Part shown: piece after piece, positions 30,475-42,348 of the stretch
Layout: each line of letters opens with the position of its first letter
How positions within the stretch are numbered: the stretch's first letter is position 1
Origin: Picochlorum sp. SENEW3
Lineage: Eukaryota
Direction of reading: 5' to 3'
Assembly: GCA_034226945.1 (NCBI GenBank)
Contig: CP120454.1
Location: forward strand, 310,001-374,000
Length of the DNA: 64,000 nucleotides
Translations under genes and position numbers: made by a program
Notes under the pieces: generated by a model
What the model saw: only the letters and a program-made list of their open reading frames with translations
Database searches by the model: none
What the model was told of the DNA's origin: nothing

Positions 30475-33249
30475 TCATTTTCCTGACGAAAATTTCCTCT
30501 TATTCTTGGGTGGCTCCTTCACCTTTAACACTTCAACATCGATTCCAGAAGTTTCCAAAAATGATATCCATGCCCTCTGTTTATCAGAAAGGGTGTCTCT
30601 CGGGCCCTTTACCTCGGATAATTTTGCAGATTGTGTCTCAGGTCTCCACAACAGGAGGTCTGGCATGCCACCTGTCCAACTGGAATAGTCTTCACACATG
30701 AGAGAACAGACGGCTGCGATACCTGCTCCACCAACACAAGAGATGATGGATTGTATAGTGGCGAGATCGTACTTTTCCCAGGATATTCCTCTCACTGAGA
30801 CACCGTAATTATCTCGCCAGCACCTTTCCACGAGAAAAGGACCATTGCCTTGGCGTACATCGTGTAAAATCTGATCAATCGTTGATTTTCTAGATTCATA
30901 GAATCCTGGAAATCCCAAATCTAAAGGAGCTGTCTGAAATGGAGTCCGAAATACATTTGGAAGCGGTTGGAAGAGGGCAGGCCATAGCAACAGGCTGAAG
31001 ATTGTGCACCATATGCCTCCCTCACTGTGAATTCCTCGATAGCATCCTCCTTCGTCGGATGCATAATATTGTAAAGCTAGTTGCTCTACTGAGCAAACGC
31101 TAGAATCGTATCCCAAGAACCTACTTTTTCCGCCCCTGGTGTTCTCGAGAGGATTGCCTTCAATAACAAGAACGTTTGGGTCTTTGGGCATGAGCTTCGC
31201 CCACGACGGCTTTTTCCATCGCCTCGGAGGCTTTGCAAGTTTTAGTATTCTTCGCTGAAGTGTGAGCCTTTCGTCAGGACGGACGCTAGGATCTGCCAAT
31301 GCTGTCTCAGCAATCTCAAGGGAGTCAGTAGGTCTCCCAATATGTTCCAAATTGATCGATAATCTGATCCACCAATACCCTCGTCTTTCCTTACAGTATA
31401 TACCACCCAGAAGCTGTTGAAGCCTCTCAATCGCAAGTTTGTATTCTTTCTTTCTCTCCAGCATACCAATCCCGACAGTTGCCATGATACAGTAGATCCA
31501 TTTACTGTGGTACTGCATGTAAAAGGGGGGCTGGAGTCCATTCGAATCTGACATTTTGTTTTCTTGTCTATCCAAAAGTTTCCAAGCCGGAGCCAGATGG
31601 TATTCTATAGATTTGAAATCTTGTTCCTGGAAAAACAAAGCCATGTGATGCAGTCCTGACGACAAATGCAAGATGTGTTGATGACATACCTGTATTGCAT
31701 GAACCAACCTTTCAGCAGCAAATAAGGACCTCTCGTAGTCTAAAAATAGTTGTCTGTTGGGAAATACTTCCTGTTCACGAGTGATGGCATAAGCTGGATA
31801 ACGAATGTGGCCTGATTCGACTGCCTCCCAAGTCCCGAGAGAATGTCCTTCGTTCAGGAAAAATAACCGCTGAATCCTATGAAAGGACTGCCTATACTCC
31901 TTTGTCACCTCGAAAATATCTCCTGTTACATTGAAGATTACTTTCAGGGTAGCATCACGGCTCTCAGAATGCTTTGACGTCAAACAACTTGCTACATAAC
32001 CAACTAGCTCATCCTTCTTTTTTGTTCGCAGCCTCTTACTAGATACATCATGCATCAAAGCTTCTGCTTCAAAATTGCTCCCTTTTATCTGATCAATAAT
32101 ATCTATCAATTCTTTTTTCTGAAACACGTCACATAAAATTGATTTTATCGTTTCAGCATCCCTGGAAGGAGCATTATTTGCACCACTGCTCAATGACTCT
32201 TTCGTGTGGACTACTGCTAGCAAACCATGATCGCACAATTCCCGCAAAGATGCTGTCACATCCTTTGAATATCTATTTTCGAGAAAATGTATGGAAAAAT
32301 ATGTTTTCTGCTTTTGTGCTAGACTTGCAAATAAAATTTGGCCTGTGGATCCCTGTGACTGGAACAAAACCTTGAATCTCTTATCATTGTCGCCGAGCGC
32401 TTTTGACTCAATTTTTTCTACAACATCCAAGATTTGATGGACTCTTTGCAGTAAACGTGCTGAATACACACTGCTGTCCTTGTCAAGTCTGTGTATTTCT
32501 GCGACTTCTGCAAGCTCTTTGATACAATCATCCTTTGAACCAAATGATGATGGTGCTTTCACAAATGACAAAGATATCCTAACTGAGACATTTTTTATTC
32601 CCAGTGGCTCATGTAACAAAATACCTCGACCTTGAACAATGCCTGCTTTCAGCAAAGGACCAAGCTTTGCTGCAACAACTTGTGGCACATATCCAAGGGA
32701 ACCTGTACCGTCCCATGCCACAGCCAATGTCGCGTTGGGGTCATACCTGTTATCCTCATCCCAAACAAGCTTGAATTCATCCCCCTTGTTCACCACATGT
32801 TTCCCACAGAACCGTCTGCCCACAATCTGTGTTTCAAAAGACATCCCGTCATTTCCAGCAGACTGAGGCTCGACTGAGACATCACGGCCATCCAAAAGAT
32901 TCGCCTTATCACTGAAATTGGCTTTCCCATTCTGTACCACGGTCGAATCGCAAGATCTGGTCATCGTATGAAGCAGACTTCTCTGCTTCTTTGGTCTAGA
33001 CTGATGTGACCTTGTTAGGCAAATCTCCACGTGCTCGCTCATGACCAACTCACTTGAATCCCCATCGAATTCTTTCCAGCATATAGGACACTGATATCCA
33101 TCCCATGAAACAGTTTGTGCCGCACTTTCTTCTCGAGCGCCTTGTCCCGCCTTTTCACTGTCACTCGAGTCAACAAGACGAACATTTGGCCCCACAATCC
33201 TGCTCAGGGTACCCATCCCACGAATATATGATGTATTATTTGAAGACAT
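30475..33249 (-). CDS. FAN1: Fanconi-associated nuclease 1 (UBZ, HIRAN, VRR_NUC)
   Basis: CPIC...HVEIC UBZ finger, IVGRRF...NRYDPNA...LGYVP HIRAN domain, SVEQLAL, HSEGG and GGMPDLLLW...SEVKGPRDTLSDKQRAW nuclease motifs. Probable in-frame intron at ~31627-31689. Confidence 0.95.
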   Translation of the reverse strand: MSSNNTSYIRGMGTLSRIVGPNVRLVDSSDSEKAGQGAREESAAQTVSWDGYQCPICWKEFDGDSSELVMSEHVEICLTRSHQSRPKKQRSLLHTMTRSCDSTVVQNGKANFSDKANLLDGRDVSVEPQSAGNDGMSFETQIVGRRFCGKHVVNKGDEFKLVWDEDNRYDPNATLAVAWDGTGSLGYVPQVVAAKLGPLLKAGIVQGRGILLHEPLGIKNVSVRISLSFVKAPSSFGSKDDCIKELAEVAEIHRLDKDSSVYSARLLQRVHQILDVVEKIESKALGDNDKRFKVLFQSQGSTGQILFASLAQKQKTYFSIHFLENRYSKDVTASLRELCDHGLLAVVHTKESLSSGANNAPSRDAETIKSILCDVFQKKELIDIIDQIKGSNFEAEALMHDVSSKRLRTKKKDELVGYVASCLTSKHSESRDATLKVIFNVTGDIFEVTKEYRQSFHRIQRLFFLNEGHSLGTWEAVESGHIRYPAYAITREQEVFPNRQLFLDYERSLFAAERLVHAIQVCHQHILHLSSGLHHMALFFQEQDFKSIEYHLAPAWKLLDRQENKMSDSNGLQPPFYMQYHSKWIYCIMATVGIGMLERKKEYKLAIERLQQLLGGIYCKERRGYWWIRLSINLEHIGRPTDSLEIAETALADPSVRPDERLTLQRRILKLAKPPRRWKKPSWAKLMPKDPNVLVIEGNPLENTRGGKSRFLGYDSSVCSVEQLALQYYASDEGGCYRGIHSEGGIWCTIFSLLLWPALFQPLPNVFRTPFQTAPLDLGFPGFYESRKSTIDQILHDVRQGNGPFLVERCWRDNYGVSVRGISWEKYDLATIQSIISCVGGAGIAAVCSLMCEDYSSWTGGMPDLLLWRPETQSAKLSEVKGPRDTLSDKQRAWISFLETSGIDVEVLKVKEPPKNKRKFSSGK

Positions 33250-33569
33250 ATCCTCTATTATGAATCCTATCACCAAATATCTATCAAAATGAACAGGTCA
33301 ATGCTTTAAGCAACAACCGACACCAGTTTTGCTTACATCTTGGAGCCAGACATGAAACACAAAGGCAAAACACGTGCTACTGGTCGTCATATTATTTATT
33401 TAACGCATTACATGCATGTATGAATTTACATACATGTAATTAATTAGTGTGGGTTACAGCACCAGCCTGGGAGTTCCCGCTCAATGGAGGGACTGGATCG
33501 ACCGATCGAATCCGTCCATTTGGGGCCCCGCTCCAGACATTATTGGCAATACAAGGAATGAAGATAAAA

Positions 33570-33730
33570 GGAACAGCTTCGTTGGGATTCTCTACAGGTA
33601 TAAGAGAATTACTCCTCGCACACTGAGTAATATTTTATGAAATGGATATTTTATGAAACCTTAGCTTAAGACGCATCTTTTGGTATACTTTTTGATAACA
33701 TCGGTGCAATATTGGTGACGCGAGAGGCGA
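33570..33730 (+). repeat. Left terminal inverted repeat of MULE
   Basis: Reverse complement of 39032-39192 with 5 mismatches by manual comparison. Contains ATATTTTATGAAA twice. Confidence 0.97.
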
Positions 33731-33981
33731 TTCTTTGTGGATCTTTCTCGATCTTGTTCATATTCCCCATCAATTATCGTCTTTGACAGGGTTTGCGTCA
33801 GTCGAGGATACATTAACTGCTCATTAGACCAGGATCGCCTAGTTAGTGACTCATACCATATATTTCTTGCATATTTAATAAGAAAATCAGTATGTATAGT
33901 TAATTCTTTCATTCAGATGAGCAGGACGTGCTGTGCCACGCGGGGAAAGAGCCCAACCACCAGTTGTTAGTTGGTCTCGCG

Positions 33982-36528
33982 ATGGAGAAAGGTCTAGGTC
34001 CGTTTCCTTGGATGAGCACTAATTTGAACTTTCAATTTTATGCTTCAATGGATTTTGGTGAATTGTAGAGGTGATAAACCGGGTGACACTAGCTCTCGAG
34101 CAGGGCGAGGACTCGTCAACCGGTTTTGACAAAATATGCAACGAATCTGCGCGATTACGACTTCGAAACAAAGAGAAGTTGCTAGAAAAAACTGTTTATA
34201 TGTGTCATCGGGGTCCTCGAAAGAACAAAAGCAGGGAACCAAAAAATGGAAGGCGTCACGTCAATTCCAAGAAAGATATCGAGTGCTGTTATGAAATGTG
34301 GGTTGTCGTATTCGCATCTGAGCCCCAAAATCGTTATTTTATCACTGTACATGGTCATACTGGCCATGATCCCGAGAATAATCCTCAAGAGAGGAGGTGG
34401 TTGAACTCCCTCGAGCAAGGAGTAGTTGAGAACTATTGCTTCAAAGTACGTCTCCATGTTGAAAAGTGTTCGGAATAAAGACTATCTTATACATGTATAT
34501 TTTTGTAGCTGTTTCCCCTGATGACTCCCGCACAGATATTGGATCAACTGCATCAAGGAGTGACACCAGGGGATTTTTCCAATTCGCTTGCATCCCTGAC
34601 CCTTGACCGGATCAAAGCAATTCAACAGAAATATTGGAGAAGAAGTCGTATATGCGATAAAGATAGTGATGCTGTACGAAAATTAATACACGCTCCAAAT
34701 TTCCCGCTGTTGTCTTGCTCCAAAGATTTGAAAAAAGGGTTGTCCATAAAGAGTGCAGATGTCCTACATTATGTACATCGCACGGAGGGTTTTCACATTG
34801 TTATATGCTCCAAGGCGCAGTCTTTACTTTTAAGGAAGCTTGGTGATCTCGTTTTCTTGGATGCAGTTCACGGAACGACAAAGTATGGGTATTTGAACTT
34901 AACAATGCTTGTCCTTGATGAATTTGGTCATGGATTTCCTGTTGCGTTTATGCTTTCACAGACAGAGACATCGAACGATTGGAATTTCCTAATCAAATCA
35001 GTATTTGAGGTCGGTTAACATGCCCTGCTACCTTGCTGTAACCTGAATAATGACAAGTTATGGATTCTTGCAGAAATCTGGAAGGGATCCTTCCAGGACA
35101 ACATTCATGATCGACAAGAGCACAACAATTAGAGCAGCAATAGATCAAGTGGGTGGGAATTACTTCCTCTGCATATTTCATATGATGCAGGATATAGACC
35201 GTCGCCTAAACAGGCATGTTGCTGGCATTCAGTCCAAAAAGAAGTCCAAGATAAAGGGCCGAATAAATTATGAGATCACAACCCTGCGTCACATTAGGGA
35301 TGAGGGAATCTTCCTTGATAGGAGTAGAGCTTTCAAAAATAGAATTCTACAAGATCCGAGAGGAATGTCTAATGTCGCGGGTTTCGTGACGTACTATGAG
35401 AAGAATTGGGAGGCTTGTGCAGACAAATGGGCTGCATTTGGGAGATTGGAATTCGCAGAATACCAGCAAGACACTAATAATTTGATCGAATCCTTTTTCA
35501 GACAGTTGAGAAACCGCCATTGTAGAGATAAAAAGACACGACTAGATGAGCACTTGCGTGTATTGGCATACAACGTCATTCCTACCTATCTGCGGAGGAG
35601 GAGCAGCATTGAAATGGGTCTGATGGGGTCAAAAAATAAAGAGTCGAACGAGATTTTAGAGAATCAGGTTCTCCAGATGATCAAAGGAGGACTTTTTAAA
35701 CTAGATGACACTTCCACTGGGACTGGGTTCGTGCATTATAAAAAGAGTGTCAATTGGTTCTGCATGGCAGAGTTGTCCTGTACATGCCAAAGGAACTCTG
35801 TTGTCTGTGTCCACATAGAAGCAGCTTTTAGACACTTTGGGTCAAATAATGTACAATTTACGTATGAAATATTGCTAAAACACGCAGACTATCTCAGAAA
35901 AAGTGGAGCTGTAAAGTTTGTGTCTGGGACAGAAGATCGTGCAATCACACATGTAGCACCTCCATCGTGGTCCAGATCCTTGGATAATAAAAACCGAATG
36001 TACTATATAGATTCCGGTAGGAGAGTATGCACATGCCCAATGTTCCAGTGCATGAAATTCTGCGGCCACATTCTTGCTACAGTTGCAGATGCAGTGCTGG
36101 AAAATTTGAATGACTACGGCCTAGACTATAGATCTGTGATGCCTGCACATGTTTTTCAACATCCCAGAATCTGTACTGCTCGGCACAGAGACCTCTCAAT
36201 ACAGATAAACGATGAATTGGCATCGTGCCTTGAGCAAGAATGTTCACTGCAACTAGAAAGATCAGACGAGCCCATAGGATATGAATTATCATCTTTAGCC
36301 TCAAGCACAAAACTGCGGCAAATTTGTTGGAGGATTCCTGAGGAGAAGCAAGAAGAAGCGGCTGAGATGATTGAAGAGTTAACGCACATTTTGGAAAAGA
36401 ATTTCCTGCTCTCTGAATTACCCACAACATTCACAAAAGAGACAGTCGAGGTTGAGAAAAAGCGAAAATATTCTAGAATCAGTACAGACAGAAAATACAA
36501 GCCTTTGTTTCCCGTCCTTAAAAAATGA
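33982..36528 (+). CDS. MULE DDE transposase with N-terminal FAR1/WRKY-GCM1-like Zn finger and two SWIM fingers
   Basis: Exons ~33982-33997, 34069-34445, 34509-35009 and 35074-36528 join in frame. Motifs: VFLDAVHGTTKYG (D1), FMIDKS (D2), CIFH (CxxH), TNNLIESFF (E), CTC..CVH and CTC..CGH. True start uncertain. Confidence 0.93.
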
Positions 36529-36550
36529 TGCAACTGCCAATCAAACCTTG

Positions 36551-38855
36551 TTACATGTCACTCAATATCCCATGCACTTTAAGTCTGATTTGATGAACGA
36601 GATGAGGAGAAAATACCCATGCCTGGATGAGCGACTGCATTTTTTGCTTATCAATGCGGACACTGCTTTTATCAGTCAGTATTACTCTCTTTTCTATCAG
36701 ATCCACCAAAGATTTGATACATGCAAGGGTGTATGGACCACAGTCATTGCTGTTTCTCTGCCTAGGTGATGAGCAAGACTCAACATGGACGTCCTGAAAG
36801 TCAGGCGTCTCCCCTCTTTTCTTAAAACAGCCCGCATGGAGAAAAAATCGAACACTCTCAATATCTACACAGTCTGTGTGATTGGAGATCGAATCCAAGT
36901 GCAGGATGAAAGTGCCCTGATGGTCAAGGGGATTCCCGATGATCAGAAGGCTCCAGTGATGCGATACAAAACAATTAGGGACTAGCAATAAATCGACATC
37001 TGGAATTTTGGTCCATAAATGACTCATGCTTTGCAAATCTCCGTTCCGCTTTAGAATGGACCCGTAGAGGTATGGCTGGCAAACCCATGCATACTGGAGA
37101 CAGTTAGCATCTGCAACTAAATTCCTGTAGATATCAGCCAAGCGACCGTTCGTGTGCATGGCATAAGCCGCAATTTCTGTACAATTAAACCACAGCGTCT
37201 CATCATCCCTGAGGGCGATCAAACGGTCCGGAGAGGATGTAATCCTCCTTTGAGAAGCTTCAGCCAATCTTCGATACTCCTCAACTAACGCATGATCGTC
37301 CTCTTCCTCTAGAAGAGTATCATCACCTTGATCTGGCGTTATTGTCTCAGTGGAACTTGGATACTGATAGATACGTGTTTTTGTCTTTCGGACGACCTGG
37401 AAATTGAGCCCCATTTTCAAGAGAAGTTCATTCAGATCATCGGTGCCCTTTGAAATGCTGGCCTTAAAGCCCACAGATTCCCCACTGACGACATTTTGTT
37501 TCTTGGACGCAATGCAATGTAAAAGCTTCGTTGAAAATCTCCTGCTTCTAGTACAACCGTCCAAGAGCACTTCGCAGCGGCTGACGCTATAACTGGTAAT
37601 AGTGCCTCGCTTTCCAATGCAGTTACGTTCGCTTGCACCAACGACAACTACTCGATCACCTGTGCAAGATGGGTCAACTCTCTCCTTCACAGGCGTCACG
37701 ATCAATTTATCTAGCAAACATGGCCTCATTCTTTGCTGCTTTGAGCCCTCCCATTCGACGCTTGCCTGTTGTGTTGCCTTGTGGAGTTTTGTCACCACCC
37801 CTGTATTGAAAGTGGCTACATTGTACACTGTTGTTCCAACCTCAATCTTGCTTGGATCTTGATCCGGAACAAAACTTTCTTCAGAATCACTTTGCGCATC
37901 AGACAATTCTGGCATTATCTCTTTATGTCTGCGCTGCTTCATTCCAATATGGCCCTGCAAGCGAGGGAGCACTGCACCGCTAAAATACACTGCAGCACTA
38001 GAAATCATTTCCGGAATGCCATCCTGCTCCTCTATACTTATAACTTTTTGCCTTGATTCAGTTGGTGTATGACAAATTGCAATCAAGACTGGATTCAGCT
38101 TGCAATAATCATCTGTCATTCCCAGTAGAGGCCCACCCTCAGAGAGAGATGCAAGCTTTTGCTGCATGTGGTCCTGGATCAGGAAAAGTTGCAACTTTGC
38201 CTGCAACGGACCTAAGAGTCGTATAAACCCTTTCAAGTAACGATTTAGCTTTCATGATCACATACCTGAAGCCACACATCCTCTGGTATTTTACCATTTC
38301 CAAGGTACCTCGTGAAGAATTTCAAGAATATTAAATCGTCTCCCTCCACCCAGTACGGCGAATGCTCTATTGTCGTTGTGACATATGGCTTCTTGCTATA
38401 GAATAGAGTCTTTGGAAAATCACATATCTGCTCGTAACTATTCACACTACCCTGCATGTACAGTTAAACTTGTGTATGCGGTCTCGGAATTTCAGAAGCA
38501 ACTGTCGAGGCCGCACCATCTCACTCGCAGTCTCCACCAAAATGTTCATATATTCTGTATCGTTTCTTTTCTTTTCGAGCATCTGATCCTTCAAGCGGCA
38601 CATCTTTCGGTTGTGATAGACTTTCTCATCCGTAATTTTCAACAGACCTGGAATGTCGTCTGTATCGAGCACGTACTTCTGGAGTTCATTCCACCTATCG
38701 GATCCAATATCTTCATTCCCTAAAAGCCTCTGTGCAAATTTACTGTGGGTAAGTCCTCGCGCACGTAACTTGTCAACGACTTCGTCGCTCAAATTTTCAA
38801 AATCATGTGCGAGCTGAACTTCATAATCCGTCGGGGTCCGTGCTGAGCGTGTCAT
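36551..38855 (-). CDS. Transposon-encoded Ulp1/SENP-like (C48) cysteine protease with tandem SH3/KOW-like modules, ~724 aa
   Basis: Exons 38855-38517, 38451-38266 and 38200-36551 splice in frame via GT-AG introns. Catalytic motifs LLLVPNC..HHWSLLII, HLDSI and PRQRNSNDCGPY are present. Confidence 0.88.
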
Positions 38856-39031
38856 TTTTTCTCTGAATTTATACTTCCTCAATCATAATTCAAAATATAT
38901 AGAGTGGAAAGGATATCGGCCGGTGCCAGGACTTGGTCAGGTACCCGTCCGCAACGGGTATGCTTATAATGTCAATGATGTCCGATTCAAGACCCTTCCC
39001 GACCGTAGAAATCTCGTAAATCTTCGCCTTT

Positions 39032-39192
39032 TCGCCTCTCGCGTCACCAATATTGCACCGATGTTATCAAAAAGTATACCAAAAGATGCGTCTTGAGCTA
39101 AGGTTTCATAAAATATCCATTTCATAAAATATTACTCAGTGTGCGAGGAGTAATTTTCTTATACCTGTAGAGAACCCCAACGAAGCGGCTCC
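39032..39192 (-). repeat. Right terminal inverted repeat of MULE
   Basis: Inverted copy of 33570-33730, followed directly by TSD AAGATAAAA. Confidence 0.97.
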
Positions 39193-39575
39193 AAGATAAA
39201 ACTATAAGAACAACCAAAAAGGGCAAAATTTCGACTCGAGATACAACTCCTCCTGTGATTAACCCACTGACACAGGGAGAAGAAGAGTGTCGCAGCAACT
39301 CTAGCAGGTAAAACTGTCATAAACGACCTTGATCCAGAGCACTGTAAGAGCACACATTTCCAGCGAGGAGTATCCATTCAAAGAAAGCAGATGCATCACA
39401 TGTTCATAATTTTGAGATAGATGACCGATGTAAGAGAGTGGAATGGAAGACATTCCAATAGAATGTTCGTGAAACATACAAATGCAAGATAGAAGAGCAC
39501 TGTCATATTCTCCCAGAGCCCGGCTCTTGTGGTGTCCAACACCGGGAGGTTTGAAATATGGTGGGTAGGTGCAGA

Positions 39576-40301
39576 TCAGCCTCTTCTATTGGGATCCAAC
39601 TTGCCTTGTTTTGCTAATTTTATCACTGACGGTGGCGCTTCATAGTGCAACAATTTGTCAATCAGAGCAGCCGGATCAGAGTCTTCTAGTAAGATTGCTC
39701 TACTCGCTGGTCGAATGAATTCTTCAGACGTGGCGTGGTCCAGAAATTCTACGAATTTGTCAAAGTACCCGTTGATATTCAAAAGCCCCACTGGTTTGTA
39801 ATGCAAACCCAATTGCTGCCACGTGGATATCTCAATTGTCTCATCCAATGTACCTAGACCACCTGGAATAGCTATGAAAGCATCTGCCTCTTCAAACATC
39901 TTGGCCTTTCTGGAGTGCATATCTCTAACAACTACAGTCTTTCCAACGGTTTTGCCGCTCACCTGCATGGGCAAATCATATATATACGACCTCAATGGAT
40001 CTGATGTTGATTTTGTATCCGATTATTGTGCACCTCATACCTCACGATCCTCAAGATAGTCTGGAATCACGCCTAAAACACCGTCGTCTCCCAACCCTCG
40101 GTACACTGTTTCAGCAATAACGCCCATCAGGCCCACGTTACCGCCTCCATATACCAATCCAATATTCCTTTTGACCATCTCTTCACCTAGAAGAACTGTT
40201 TGAGCAGCATACTGTTTGTTTCTGCCGATGCTAGACCCGCAGAAAACTGCAACTTTTTTGAAATCTTTCGTGGTGGTATGCGCCATGATCACTTTCTGCA
40301 T
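39576..40301 (-). CDS. LOG: LOG family (cytokinin riboside monophosphate phosphoribohydrolase / lysine decarboxylase-like)
   Basis: VAVFCGSS, LVYGGGNVGLMG, MHSRK and PGGLGTLDE motifs. Intron at ~39963-40040. Confidence 0.93.
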
Positions 40302-41094
40302 TATTTTTTCTCAATATTTCCGTGTTGAATACAGACATAGAGGGATTGGAAGGATTATTCAATCATGCGGGATACCTACCGAACTCCTTATTGGAGAACC
40401 TCAGCCCATCAGGATTTCAAACTGCTGGCGCATGCATGCGAATGCATATGCAGGTCTTGGAGCTCGAGCGGATACCCAACAGTTCAATCTAAAACAGATT
40501 CAAAACAGGCCTCCATCGTTTGACCGTCGCTGAGGGAGAATGCGTGGGATGAAGACAATATCCGATCTCAGGCATACTTTGATGGGTACCCTTTCATCTA
40601 TCAGGGAACAGTCATCCAACCGACAATCCGAGAATTTGAAATTGGTGGCACATGCAGTGCCCTCTCTCATACGTAATTTATACGTAATCACTTTCTCAAA
40701 ATATTCAAAAACGTTTTGACGTCCGTGATTCGTTGCACATTGGTGACAGCGATACAAACCCAGCATATAGACCACCCACGTCAAATCTCATTCGATTCGA
40801 CTTGAACGCAAGTTTCACGCCACGCTCATATTTATGCATCCAAGCCTACAAGTATGTTTTTTTCATTTTTTTTGAATATTTTGTGCACATGGATGGGTGT
40901 TTTGCGATGAATGACTCGGACCTTGCGTGCTGCTACAAAGCAAGGCAACGGTTTCCCTTGCTATTGCTTTGGGTGCACGGTTTTGTGCCATGCATTGTTT
41001 TCTTCCATCGCACTAGACTAATCATAAGACTCTTATGTATCATATGTGTGCAGACATACACTAAACGATAGTTTTGTTTCGTAAAGTGAGAAGG

Positions 41095-42348
41095 ATGGCT
41101 TGCCAGGCTGAGGCAAAGGCTGCTGCCCAGGAGGCCGTTTTATCGGAGAACAAAGAAGGTAACAGCAATATTATCACTACATGTGCTGTTACAACAAGTT
41201 CAACATCTTCCACGAAAATTAGTGCTCCAGAGGTGGAGACTGCTGAGACCTGGGGACAATGCCTTGGGAACAACCAGGTTGATCATCTGCAAAAGCCTGT
41301 AGCTGGCATTAGCATGTCCAGGCATGCTATTAAGAATCGCAGAAGGCGTGCTGCACGACGTGCCAAGAACGCTGTGGATAAAATCCGCGTGAAAGAAGAT
41401 AAGGAGGAGGGAGAAACAGTGGCCACACCAAGGATTCGGGCAGTGCAGGATTTCAAGCCTGCTATTGATTTGGAGAGCATCGCAAATCAGGTATCAGTTG
41501 ATAATGGTAATAGAGATACGTTGAGCAAGCAAGTGGAGGTACATCACCCAAAATGGCTGAGGAGTACAGCTCAACTCTTTTGGGTGGAGTCAACTGAGGA
41601 GAAACAGCATGAATTCTACTACGGAGAGGAGTTAGATGCTCATGAGAAGATATATTGTGTCCTCCATTCAATTGATGACTCTTGTCTCTCCCATGATGGT
41701 TATGAACGACCAGTATATTCGGGAAATTGGCATGACTGGGAGCAGCTCTGTAGTCCATGCAAGGGTCGAGGCGAAACCCCAAAATTGTATATTCATAAAA
41801 TTCGCTTCATTGGCATGGATACAAAGTCAGCGATATTTTATCAAACGGTGGATGAACAGTTGAACTACCATACATTTACTGCTGATGGTACCCCAGTGCA
41901 TACTGCCCAGATGTTGGAATGGCACGAAAGAGAGTTTAATCGCCGATGCAAGTCATCGAGAGATTTTGAGGCATTGATTGACGAGAAAGAAGTGGAGCTT
42001 GCTGAGTCCTGTGGCATAACATATGGTCCGGATGGGAACCCGAATGCAGAGACATTATCCAACTTGGAATACGGCGGTGTAGTTTTCAGGGGGAGACCAA
42101 GAACTGTTTACAGTCATGTTATGGTACCCACCGGAAGGGACAAGGACGGAAATATCATTCAAAAGCACGAGTATACCAAGACATTGCTGGCATACAAATC
42201 ATTCTATAGAGTTATGTCAACAAGCAACAAGGAGATATACCACTTTGGAGGAGAGCAATTATTTTACCAGTCGGGTCAACCTTGTGTACAGCTGTACGGG
42301 AATCCTGAAGCAAATGTCGATACATTTCAGGAGTCTGTATATCTTTGA
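41095..42348 (+). CDS. Hypothetical protein (no family recognised)
   Basis: Uninterrupted ~417-codon frame containing an Arg-rich patch (KNRRRRAARRAK) and a globular-looking C-terminal half. Confidence 0.7.
   Translation: MACQAEAKAAAQEAVLSENKEGNSNIITTCAVTTSSTSSTKISAPEVETAETWGQCLGNNQVDHLQKPVAGISMSRHAIKNRRRRAARRAKNAVDKIRVKEDKEEGETVATPRIRAVQDFKPAIDLESIANQVSVDNGNRDTLSKQVEVHHPKWLRSTAQLFWVESTEEKQHEFYYGEELDAHEKIYCVLHSIDDSCLSHDGYERPVYSGNWHDWEQLCSPCKGRGETPKLYIHKIRFIGMDTKSAIFYQTVDEQLNYHTFTADGTPVHTAQMLEWHEREFNRRCKSSRDFEALIDEKEVELAESCGITYGPDGNPNAETLSNLEYGGVVFRGRPRTVYSHVMVPTGRDKDGNIIQKHEYTKTLLAYKSFYRVMSTSNKEIYHFGGEQLFYQSGQPCVQLYGNPEANVDTFQESVYL

Follow-up and report, generated by a model that had tools for sequence, protein, structure and literature searches.

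The window analysed here, a 64,000-nucleotide stretch of the green picoalga Picochlorum sp. SENEW3 (assembly GCA_034226945.1, contig CP120454.1, positions 310,001 to 374,000 of the forward strand; coordinates below count from its first letter), carries a Mutator-like element (MULE) of 5,623 bp at 33570-39192, inside which lies an accessory gene whose 724-amino-acid product ends in a Ulp1-type SUMO protease (peptidase C48) domain. According to our structural model, a segment upstream of this protease folds as two consecutive SH3-type barrels, the first (barrel 1) resembling Tudor and chromo-barrel domains and the second (barrel 2) KOW domains. Because no Pfam model reaches its cut-off for it, the barrel pair is regarded as an unannotated domain family, and sequence comparison indicates that this family links protease-bearing to protease-less proteins. 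The conserved unit deduced from the alignments consists of an N-domain, barrel 1, barrel 2 and a middle region behind them, and the Ulp1 domain, attached via a second acidic linker, is present in a subset only. We propose, in a reading that we judge to be evenly poised between right and wrong, that the barrel pair serves for docking and stems from an older accessory protein associated with DNA, that the SUMO protease was added to this protein later, and that the pair binds nucleic acid or a partner.

Two peptides picked out by an initial annotation of this DNA were both found on the minus strand in a single open frame of 566 codons (36551-38251; translated as P0001). The segment that carries them, 37515-37855 on the minus strand, corresponds to residues 133-246 of P0001 and to residues 291-404 of the 724-amino-acid protein P0020, and lies wholly in exon 3. 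P0020 was obtained by cluster look-up and its gene model was then rebuilt from the window sequence; the minus-strand join 38855-38517 + 38451-38266 + 38200-36551 translates into 724 amino acids identical to the deposited protein, which its sources list for Picochlorum sp. SENEW3 as a hypothetical protein and which EukProt also contains in its Picochlorum renovo set. The domain order of P0020 is helical N-region, N-domain, acidic linker, barrel 1, barrel 2, middle region, second acidic linker and Ulp1/C48. An acidic stretch before the barrels and a Ulp1 domain after them, as first claimed, are therefore parts of the same polypeptide in that order: the stretch SDAQSDSEESFVPDQD stands upstream of the barrel segment in the translation, and about 165 residues separate the barrels from the protease, the barrels being upstream of it and not adjacent. 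The copy in the window is open across all 724 codons, and among the contigs of four public runs those from RNA libraries map to 36762-37381 and to one end of a terminal inverted repeat (TIR) only. The initial annotation had allowed for the segment being spliced out, which finds no support in the transcript-derived homologue P0033, a 708-amino-acid open reading frame from a transcriptome assembly ('type:complete') that is collinear with P0020, 29-45% identical to it in the N-domain, barrels and Ulp1 domain, and keeps both barrels. Taken together, the identity of the coding sequence with a deposited protein, the collinear transcriptome frame and the RNA contigs inside exon 3 speak for a real gene.

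Barrel 1 is encoded at 37688..37858 (minus strand; P0001 residues 132-188; KIEVGTTVYNV..GVVTKL..ASVEWEG..R..LDKLIVTP) and barrel 2 at 37499..37678 (minus strand; residues 192-251; GDRVVVVGASERNCIGKRGTITSY..CEVLLDG..RRFSTKLLH). An AlphaFold2 model of P0001 residues 121-260, computed from a 13-row alignment of the window segment with 12 family members, has a mean predicted local distance difference test score (pLDDT) of 83.8 and a predicted template-modelling score (pTM) of 0.70, with 5 + 5 beta strands, five to each barrel, and a pLDDT of 90-95 in barrel 2. A Foldseek search of the PDB with this model gave 41 matches at E <= 0.001. Structure prediction followed by such a search was the check that had been proposed initially for the two SH3-like barrels, and it bears them out, barrel 1 being predicted as Tudor / chromo-barrel / SH3-like and barrel 2 as a KOW-like barrel of the SH3 type. 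The leading matches were the tandem KOW pairs of Spt5/DSIF (5ohq, 6.7e-06; 4ytl, 1.4e-05) and spliceosome chains (8i0p_K, 1.0e-05; 7abi_7, 2.6e-05), followed by the tandem SH3-like domains of KIN17 and then by the tandem Tudor/Agenet proteins SGF29, FMRP, ADCP1 and BAHCC1 (E 3e-04 to 2e-03).

The superpositions made with VIA-align have Z scores of 7-9, near values common for small domains, and are taken to speak for a fold class and not for kinship, a caution to be set beside those discussed below. Barrel 2 superposes on the KOW domain of the archaeal Spt5 protein MjSpt5 (4zn3_A; Z 9.0, root-mean-square deviation (rmsd) 1.9 A, 59 residues) and on NusG KOW domains (2xhc_A, Z 7.3, 1.5 A; 1m1g_A, Z 7.2, 1.4 A), and the pair as a whole on Spt5 KOW6-7 (Z 8.2 across 98 amino acids). 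For barrel 1 the matches were the SH3-like domain of UBE2O (Z 7.3), the N-terminal fragment of Tip60 (4qqg, Z 7.1), the Tudor domain of PHF19 (Z 7.0), Tbtudor (Z 7.0), the chromo-barrel of MRG15 (Z 6.9) and the Tudor domains of SMN/TDRD3. The two barrels show a weak likeness to each other, in register (hhalign P 4.6e-04, probability 33%; 37499-37858), and the pair possibly arose by internal duplication. A separate fold search of BFVD returned only tandem-barrel proteins of a generic kind, from phages and giant viruses; some are named SprT-like, the template-modelling scores (TM-scores) are 0.3-0.4, and no inference was drawn from it.

In profile searches of the PDB, the only non-protease matches are KOW proteins (human SPT5 KOW6, E 0.0057; L26, 0.078; L24, 0.15; SPT5, 0.16), and a phmmer search with the barrel segment gave no match to PDB sequences at E <= 10. 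The KOW motif consists of alternating hydrophobic residues followed by G..KG..G; GDRVVVVGASERNCIGKRGTITSY carries both halves of it with extra residues in between, and the glycine-rich turn of barrel 2 contains GASERNCIGKRG, which we take to be an insertion relative to that motif. The Gly of GK.G is invariant in 13/13 sequences. The KOW-type assignment made initially for the second barrel holds for its predicted fold, given the superposition on MjSpt5 KOW; at the sequence level, no Pfam KOW cut-off is reached.

A different proposal, already made in the initial annotation, is that the segment is a reader of chromatin. The barrels would then recognize histone methyl-lysine or methyl-arginine as members of the 'royal' group (Tudor/Agenet/chromo-barrel) and tether the protease to the marked chromatin of the element. 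The superposition of barrel 1 on the PHF19 Tudor domain, Tip60, the MRG15 chromo-barrel and SMN/TDRD3 Tudor would suit such a role, as would the tandem Tudor/Agenet proteins SGF29, FMRP, ADCP1 and BAHCC1 found by Foldseek. Recognition by methyl-lysine readers depends on a cage formed by several aromatic residues. An aromatic-cage test, made on the alignment and not on coordinates, found a Trp in barrel 1 as the sole invariant aromatic (13/13 sequences), the remaining aromatic positions of barrel 1 being variable (Y/F/Q/E/I/R/H) and barrel 2 having no invariant aromatic at all; in addition, the Tudor, Agenet and chromo models of Pfam gave no match to the 13 members even at E <= 1. Because only this one aromatic is invariant, a canonical methyl-lysine reader appears unlikely and the claim of a Tudor-type reader is not upheld; we consider a reader of the royal kind in general improbable.

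Conservation of P0020 was judged against P0029 and P0033. P0029 and P0031 are two accessions of a 721-amino-acid paralogue from the same species, named Ubiquitin-like-specific protease 1D and 41-58% identical in the N-domain, barrels and Ulp1 domain; two diverged lineages of the accessory gene therefore coexist in that species. Identity with P0029 and P0033, respectively, is 53% and 45% in barrel 1, 58% and 41% in barrel 2, 46% and 37% in the N-domain, 41% and 29% in the Ulp1 domain and 17% and 21% in the middle region, so that by this measure conservation is highest in the barrels. In five close sequences the linker LIVTPVK.RV.P and the barrel 2 core G.RVV..GA..IGK.GTI are invariant.

At least six gene models of the protein exist in one species (P0003 and P0020-P0024). 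P0022, P0023 and P0024 have frame-shifted tails, located within the barrels or behind them, and in P0003 a portion of barrel 1 is skipped, as is the protease; other models of the same species keep the barrel region. The six models suggest several copies, some of them decayed or mis-modelled. The barrels might on this account be an ancestral leftover that serves as a spacer only, or the whole gene a decaying passenger, as the frame changes that truncate P0022, P0023 and P0024 and the partial loss of barrel 1 in P0003 could be taken to indicate. Such decay fits poorly with barrels that surpass the rest of the protein in conservation, both between paralogues and in comparison with a distant transcript-derived homologue, with a window copy open over 724 codons, and with the invariant linker and core just described, and we regard it as highly improbable.

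The distribution of the barrel pair was examined by an exhaustive HMMER search with residues 133-250 at E <= 0.001, which matched 16 proteins, 12 of them true family members. Four of the 16 have a Peptidase_C48 domain, one is a fragment of that type and seven are protease-less; the remaining four are repeat or spurious matches, comprising two GDRV..G..G repeat proteins, one true multi-KOW protein (P0019, at 9.3e-04) and one HYR protein. P0007 (1364 amino acids) and P0013 (892 amino acids) contain repeats of an MPPLEYVG spacer with a GDRV.LKGLSKKELNGQKG barrel-like unit, as many as 8 stretches of a protein matching barrel 2. The seven protease-less relatives are 180-349 amino acids long and, in the alignments, share with the window protein the pre-barrel region (..FYL..MLPR..), both barrels and the post-barrel middle region; in six of the seven a short basic tail follows straight after the middle region, and the seventh is cut off within barrel 2. 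Because these relatives share the N-domain, barrels and middle region, Ulp1 looks like the added part, that is, like a later addition to an older core unit. The initial annotation had described the barrels as modules fused upstream of the transposon's Ulp1 domain; with the same core found without any protease in 7 of the 12 family members, that order appears reversed. Word-indexed homologue searches with the N-terminal region and with the protease-less group returned only sequences already found, and P0014, taken as a query for the Atlas search, led to nothing usable.

The Ulp1/C48 catalytic domain itself lies at 36641..37009 (minus strand; P0001 residues 415-537) and is matched in P0001 by the Pfam family Peptidase_C48 (PF02902) at E 1.4e-13, with 51.6 bits against a cut-off of 20.7. 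The roles of the catalytic His, Asp and Cys and of the oxyanion Gln are known from the peptidase family. A family profile matched SENP1 (E 4.1e-11) and brought the His, Asp and Gln/Cys motifs into register, the window protein having HHW, LHLDS and PRQRNSNDCGPY (Q..N.NDCG) in the columns of HW, DS and PQQMNGSDCG of SENP1. The domain is apparently intact, with its catalytic motifs in place.

For the N-domain a nuclease origin is possible. In the relative P0015 this domain reads ..SASLDY..IVEIKSW..QAVTQL.., which resembles the D..ExK core of nucleases of the YqaJ/lambda-exonuclease type; the catalytic motif of the PD-(D/E)XK nucleases is D..(D/E)xK. Queried with residues 1-130 of P0015, the Atlas feature search ranked a YqaJ cluster first, at 0.95, with 21 of 30 matches YqaJ and the rest PD-(D/E)XK families. 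In the aligned columns the window protein has TIEH..IFLK where P0015 has SLDY..VEIK, the Glu of 'EIK' being replaced by Phe, and the protease-bearing proteins read IFLK, FFK and FFK at the EIK columns. The N-domain is thus possibly a degenerate nuclease-like fold of the YqaJ/PD-(D/E)XK kind, which we offer as a lead only; if it has such a fold, activity has probably been lost in the protease-bearing proteins. P0038 is also among the relatives that bear on this lead.

With respect to gene structure, exon 1 (38517..38855, minus strand; P0020 residues 1-113) encodes the helical N-terminal region, in which a DTDDIPGL motif is conserved in P0029 and P0033 and for which no Pfam family match was found over its 113 amino acids. 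Exon 2 (38266..38451, minus strand; residues 114-175) encodes the N-terminal half of the N-domain, with 'IFLKFF' aligning with 'VEIKSW' of P0015. Exon 3 (36551..38200, minus strand; residues 176-724, including the stop codon) begins with the C-terminal half of the N-domain (37916..38200, minus strand), which the alignments show to be common to the protease-less relatives. Introns 1 (38452..38516) and 2 (38201..38265), both on the minus strand, are 65 nt each and of the GT..AG type. The acidic linker between the N-domain and barrel 1 (37859..37906, minus strand) is translated as LSDAQSDSEESFVPDQD; it falls in the lowest conservation class, and the first 8 residues of the AlphaFold2 model have a pLDDT <50.

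The charge of the protein bears on what the barrels may bind. The barrels are basic (18 K+R vs 10 D+E; pI 9.5), and the flanking regions have pI values of 5.0-5.8. In the docking reading introduced above, an ancestral DNA-associated accessory protein would have gained a SUMO protease, and the basic barrel pair, set between acidic linkers, would act as its docking module by binding a partner protein or nucleic acid, the latter at the ends of the element or in its transcripts. Docking would bring the protease to its site of action, where it would meet SUMO-modified proteins of the transposition complex or others present at the element.

The same barrels could instead work as a protein-protein adaptor that binds the transposase, RNA polymerase II, SUMO or a SUMO-modified substrate and hands it over to the protease. 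Spt5/NusG KOW domains, the closest structures to the barrels, are best known as protein-docking modules and bind RNA polymerase II; the SH3-like domains of UBE2O score for barrel 1 (Z 7.3), and the accessory and transposase genes of the element stand tail to tail, all of which would agree with an adaptor. However, the strong basic charge suits nucleic acid at least equally, and the existence of protease-less relatives implies a role of the barrels that is independent of the SUMO protease. We regard a pure adaptor as a real, if minor, possibility.

Several points weigh against docking as proposed here. The predicted likeness of fold says nothing on the function of the barrels, and in Foldseek the pair as a whole has TM-scores of 0.30-0.38 and an rmsd of 7-8 A, the mutual arrangement of the barrels matching no solved tandem. 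For the barrels of all 13 family members, the Pfam KOW, Tudor and SH3 models stay below their curated cut-offs: the best, SH3_12, reaches 17.6 bits against a cut-off of 26.2; the second segment has an Xrn1 SH3-like match at E 0.029, below threshold; the window segment matches KOW6_SPT5 at E 0.079 (13.3 bits vs a cut-off of 27) and does not match PF00467; and KOW is found in one of the 13 members (E 0.037) and KOW6_SPT5 in three, all below cut-off. The barrel region has no cover by RNA contigs, and no splice joint was seen in the four public runs. The N-domain has neither a Pfam nor a PHROG match, an AlphaFold2 model of residues 1-278 of the window protein was unusable (pLDDT 48), and the nuclease-like reading of this domain draws on a single Atlas match (0.95) and a likeness to the D..ExK motif. 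No related locus was found in the scanned metagenome or viral contigs, and the relatives are thus at most putatively transposon-borne.

The assignment of the gene to a Mutator-like transposon, made initially, is borne out by its TIRs of 161 nt, its 9-bp target duplication and its MULE/SWIM transposase, which together identify the element as Mutator-like. The left TIR (33570..33730, plus strand) is 97% complementary to the right TIR (39032..39192, minus strand), with 5/161 mismatches, and the element is flanked by identical 9-bp target-site duplications (AAGATAAAA) at 33561..33569 on the left and 39193..39201 on the right. The transposase is encoded on the plus strand by an N-terminal open frame (34509..35018; RNase H-like / MULE catalytic core) and a C-terminal open frame (35047..36528; SWIM zinc finger, 2 stretches), which converge on the minus-strand accessory gene tail to tail. 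In Pfam, the N-terminal frame matches ZSWIM1-3_RNaseH-like (E 1.1e-07, 32.2 bits vs a cut-off of 27.2) and, just under its cut-off of 27.6, the MULE model (E 6.9e-05, 23.6 bits), and the C-terminal frame matches SWIM (E 6.8e-07, 29.1 bits vs a cut-off of 19.6). The 13-nt direct repeat ATATTTTATGAAA occurs twice in each TIR (33630-33658; 39104-39132), in perfect copies that lie 16 nt apart and are possible protein-binding sites for the transposase or the accessory protein. The window holds one copy of the element, apparently an intact MULE and a recent insertion. One RNA-library contig (run X18) joins the outer 42 nt of the TIR (39145-39186) to 118 nt unlike the window flank, suggesting that an environmental sample contained either the element at a different insertion site or a relative of it. 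Among the neighbours, the host gene on the left (30475-33297, minus strand) is a 940-codon frame with HIRAN, FAN1 TPR and VRR-NUC domains and encodes a FAN1-like nuclease, that on the right (39576-40022, minus strand) is of the LOG type (Lysine_decarbox), and a 427-codon frame at 41065-42348 (plus strand) has no Pfam match at E <= 0.001.

Compared with known barrel proteins, the algal pair is closest to the KOW domains of Spt5 and NusG (and to the tandems of DSIF, GPKOW and KIN17), with which it shares the five-stranded SH3-type barrel, barrel 2 superposing at 1.4-2.1 A across 50-59 residues. The pair also aligns with Spt5 KOW6-7 and KOW2-3, and barrel 2 carries a G-D-R-V-V-V..G-K-R-G-T-I stretch. 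In contrast to KOW proteins, which are transcription or ribosome factors, the algal pair is found in a transposon accessory protein together with a protease, and its two barrels are arranged differently (rmsd 7-8 A, TM 0.3-0.4). With the tandem Tudor/Agenet proteins SGF29, FMRP, ADCP1 and BAHCC1 it has in common two consecutive SH3-type barrels; unlike these readers, it has no conserved aromatic cage and no sequence-family match.

In flowering plants, transposons with a SUMO protease of their own are already known, and to our knowledge no sequence-specific anti-silencing factor of a transposon other than VANC has been characterised. The available passages of one review (PMC13317346) describe Ulp1 domains in Mutator-like elements of Arabidopsis (KAONASHI/KIU), melon, rice and grapevine, and state that some VANC anti-silencing genes of the Arabidopsis VANDAL elements carry a Ulp1 domain, that VANC is a sequence-specific DNA binder whose targets are short motifs within non-coding stretches of related elements, and that the role of Ulp1 in the plant VANC-Ulp1 proteins is unknown. 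Elsewhere, in sources likewise available in part, the fold of VANC is reported to be that of the MAIN / plant mobile domain (PMC13547354), and for rice ULPs fusions are reported with the plant mobile domain, with ankyrin domains and with MULE transposase domains (PMC12903978). As far as these passages go, the algal gene resembles the plant KI-MULE/KIU genes in being an accessory gene of a MULE with its non-protease part first and Ulp1/C48 at the end, and differs in that the plant elements are non-TIR MULEs, whereas the algal element has 161-nt TIRs and a green picoalga as its host. Unlike in plant VANC-Ulp1, the partner of the algal Ulp1 is a nuclease-like N-domain, if that lead holds, with two predicted SH3-type barrels; P0001, P0020, P0029 and P0033 gave no match to the VANC or plant-mobile-domain families of Pfam even at E <= 10, and a remote fold relation of the N-domain to VANC or the plant mobile domain is conceivable. 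No mention of SH3-type barrels beside a transposon Ulp1 was found in the available main-text passages on MULE-borne Ulp1, a literature search that paired Picochlorum with MULE or Mutator found no paper, and literature matches for KOW did not concern such an architecture.

A second parallel concerns the N-domain. ISL2EU elements are eukaryotic cut-and-paste transposons with a YqaJ-domain second open reading frame whose role is given as unknown in the available passages (PMC4482050). The algal element would likewise have a second gene with a YqaJ-type domain, a lead that comes from the best Atlas match of P0015. The two belong to different transposon superfamilies, the algal protein has Phe at the Glu of 'EIK', and the ISL2EU passages contain neither barrels nor Ulp1.

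An anti-silencing role of the algal protein would be drawn by analogy to the plant VANC-Ulp1 proteins and is not a result. Carried to its end, the analogy would mean that a Mutator element of an alga evolved, on its own, an equivalent of the VANC-Ulp1 anti-silencing factor of plants, a scenario that we hold to be speculative and rather unlikely in full. A nuclease fold that lacks its catalytic Glu, together with the barrel pair, would recognize the element's own ends (for example the 13-nt repeats) or its nascent RNA; the SUMO protease so recruited would strip SUMO-dependent silencing or repair factors and license expression and transposition; and the protease-less relatives would represent an ancestral accessory factor that binds DNA ends.

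The combination of a MULE with Ulp1 is already known from plants, and the variant described here adds an unannotated barrel-pair domain to it. An apparently intact Ulp1 is joined here to a module that is predicted to be well folded, is strongly conserved and is quite unlike VANC, and it occurs in an intact copy of the element in an alga with a small genome. If the barrels bind the element's own DNA or RNA, the algal and plant proteins would be a case of convergent evolution of a targeting module plus a SUMO protease in Mutator elements, and the algal element would offer a compact system for asking what transposon-borne SUMO proteases do.

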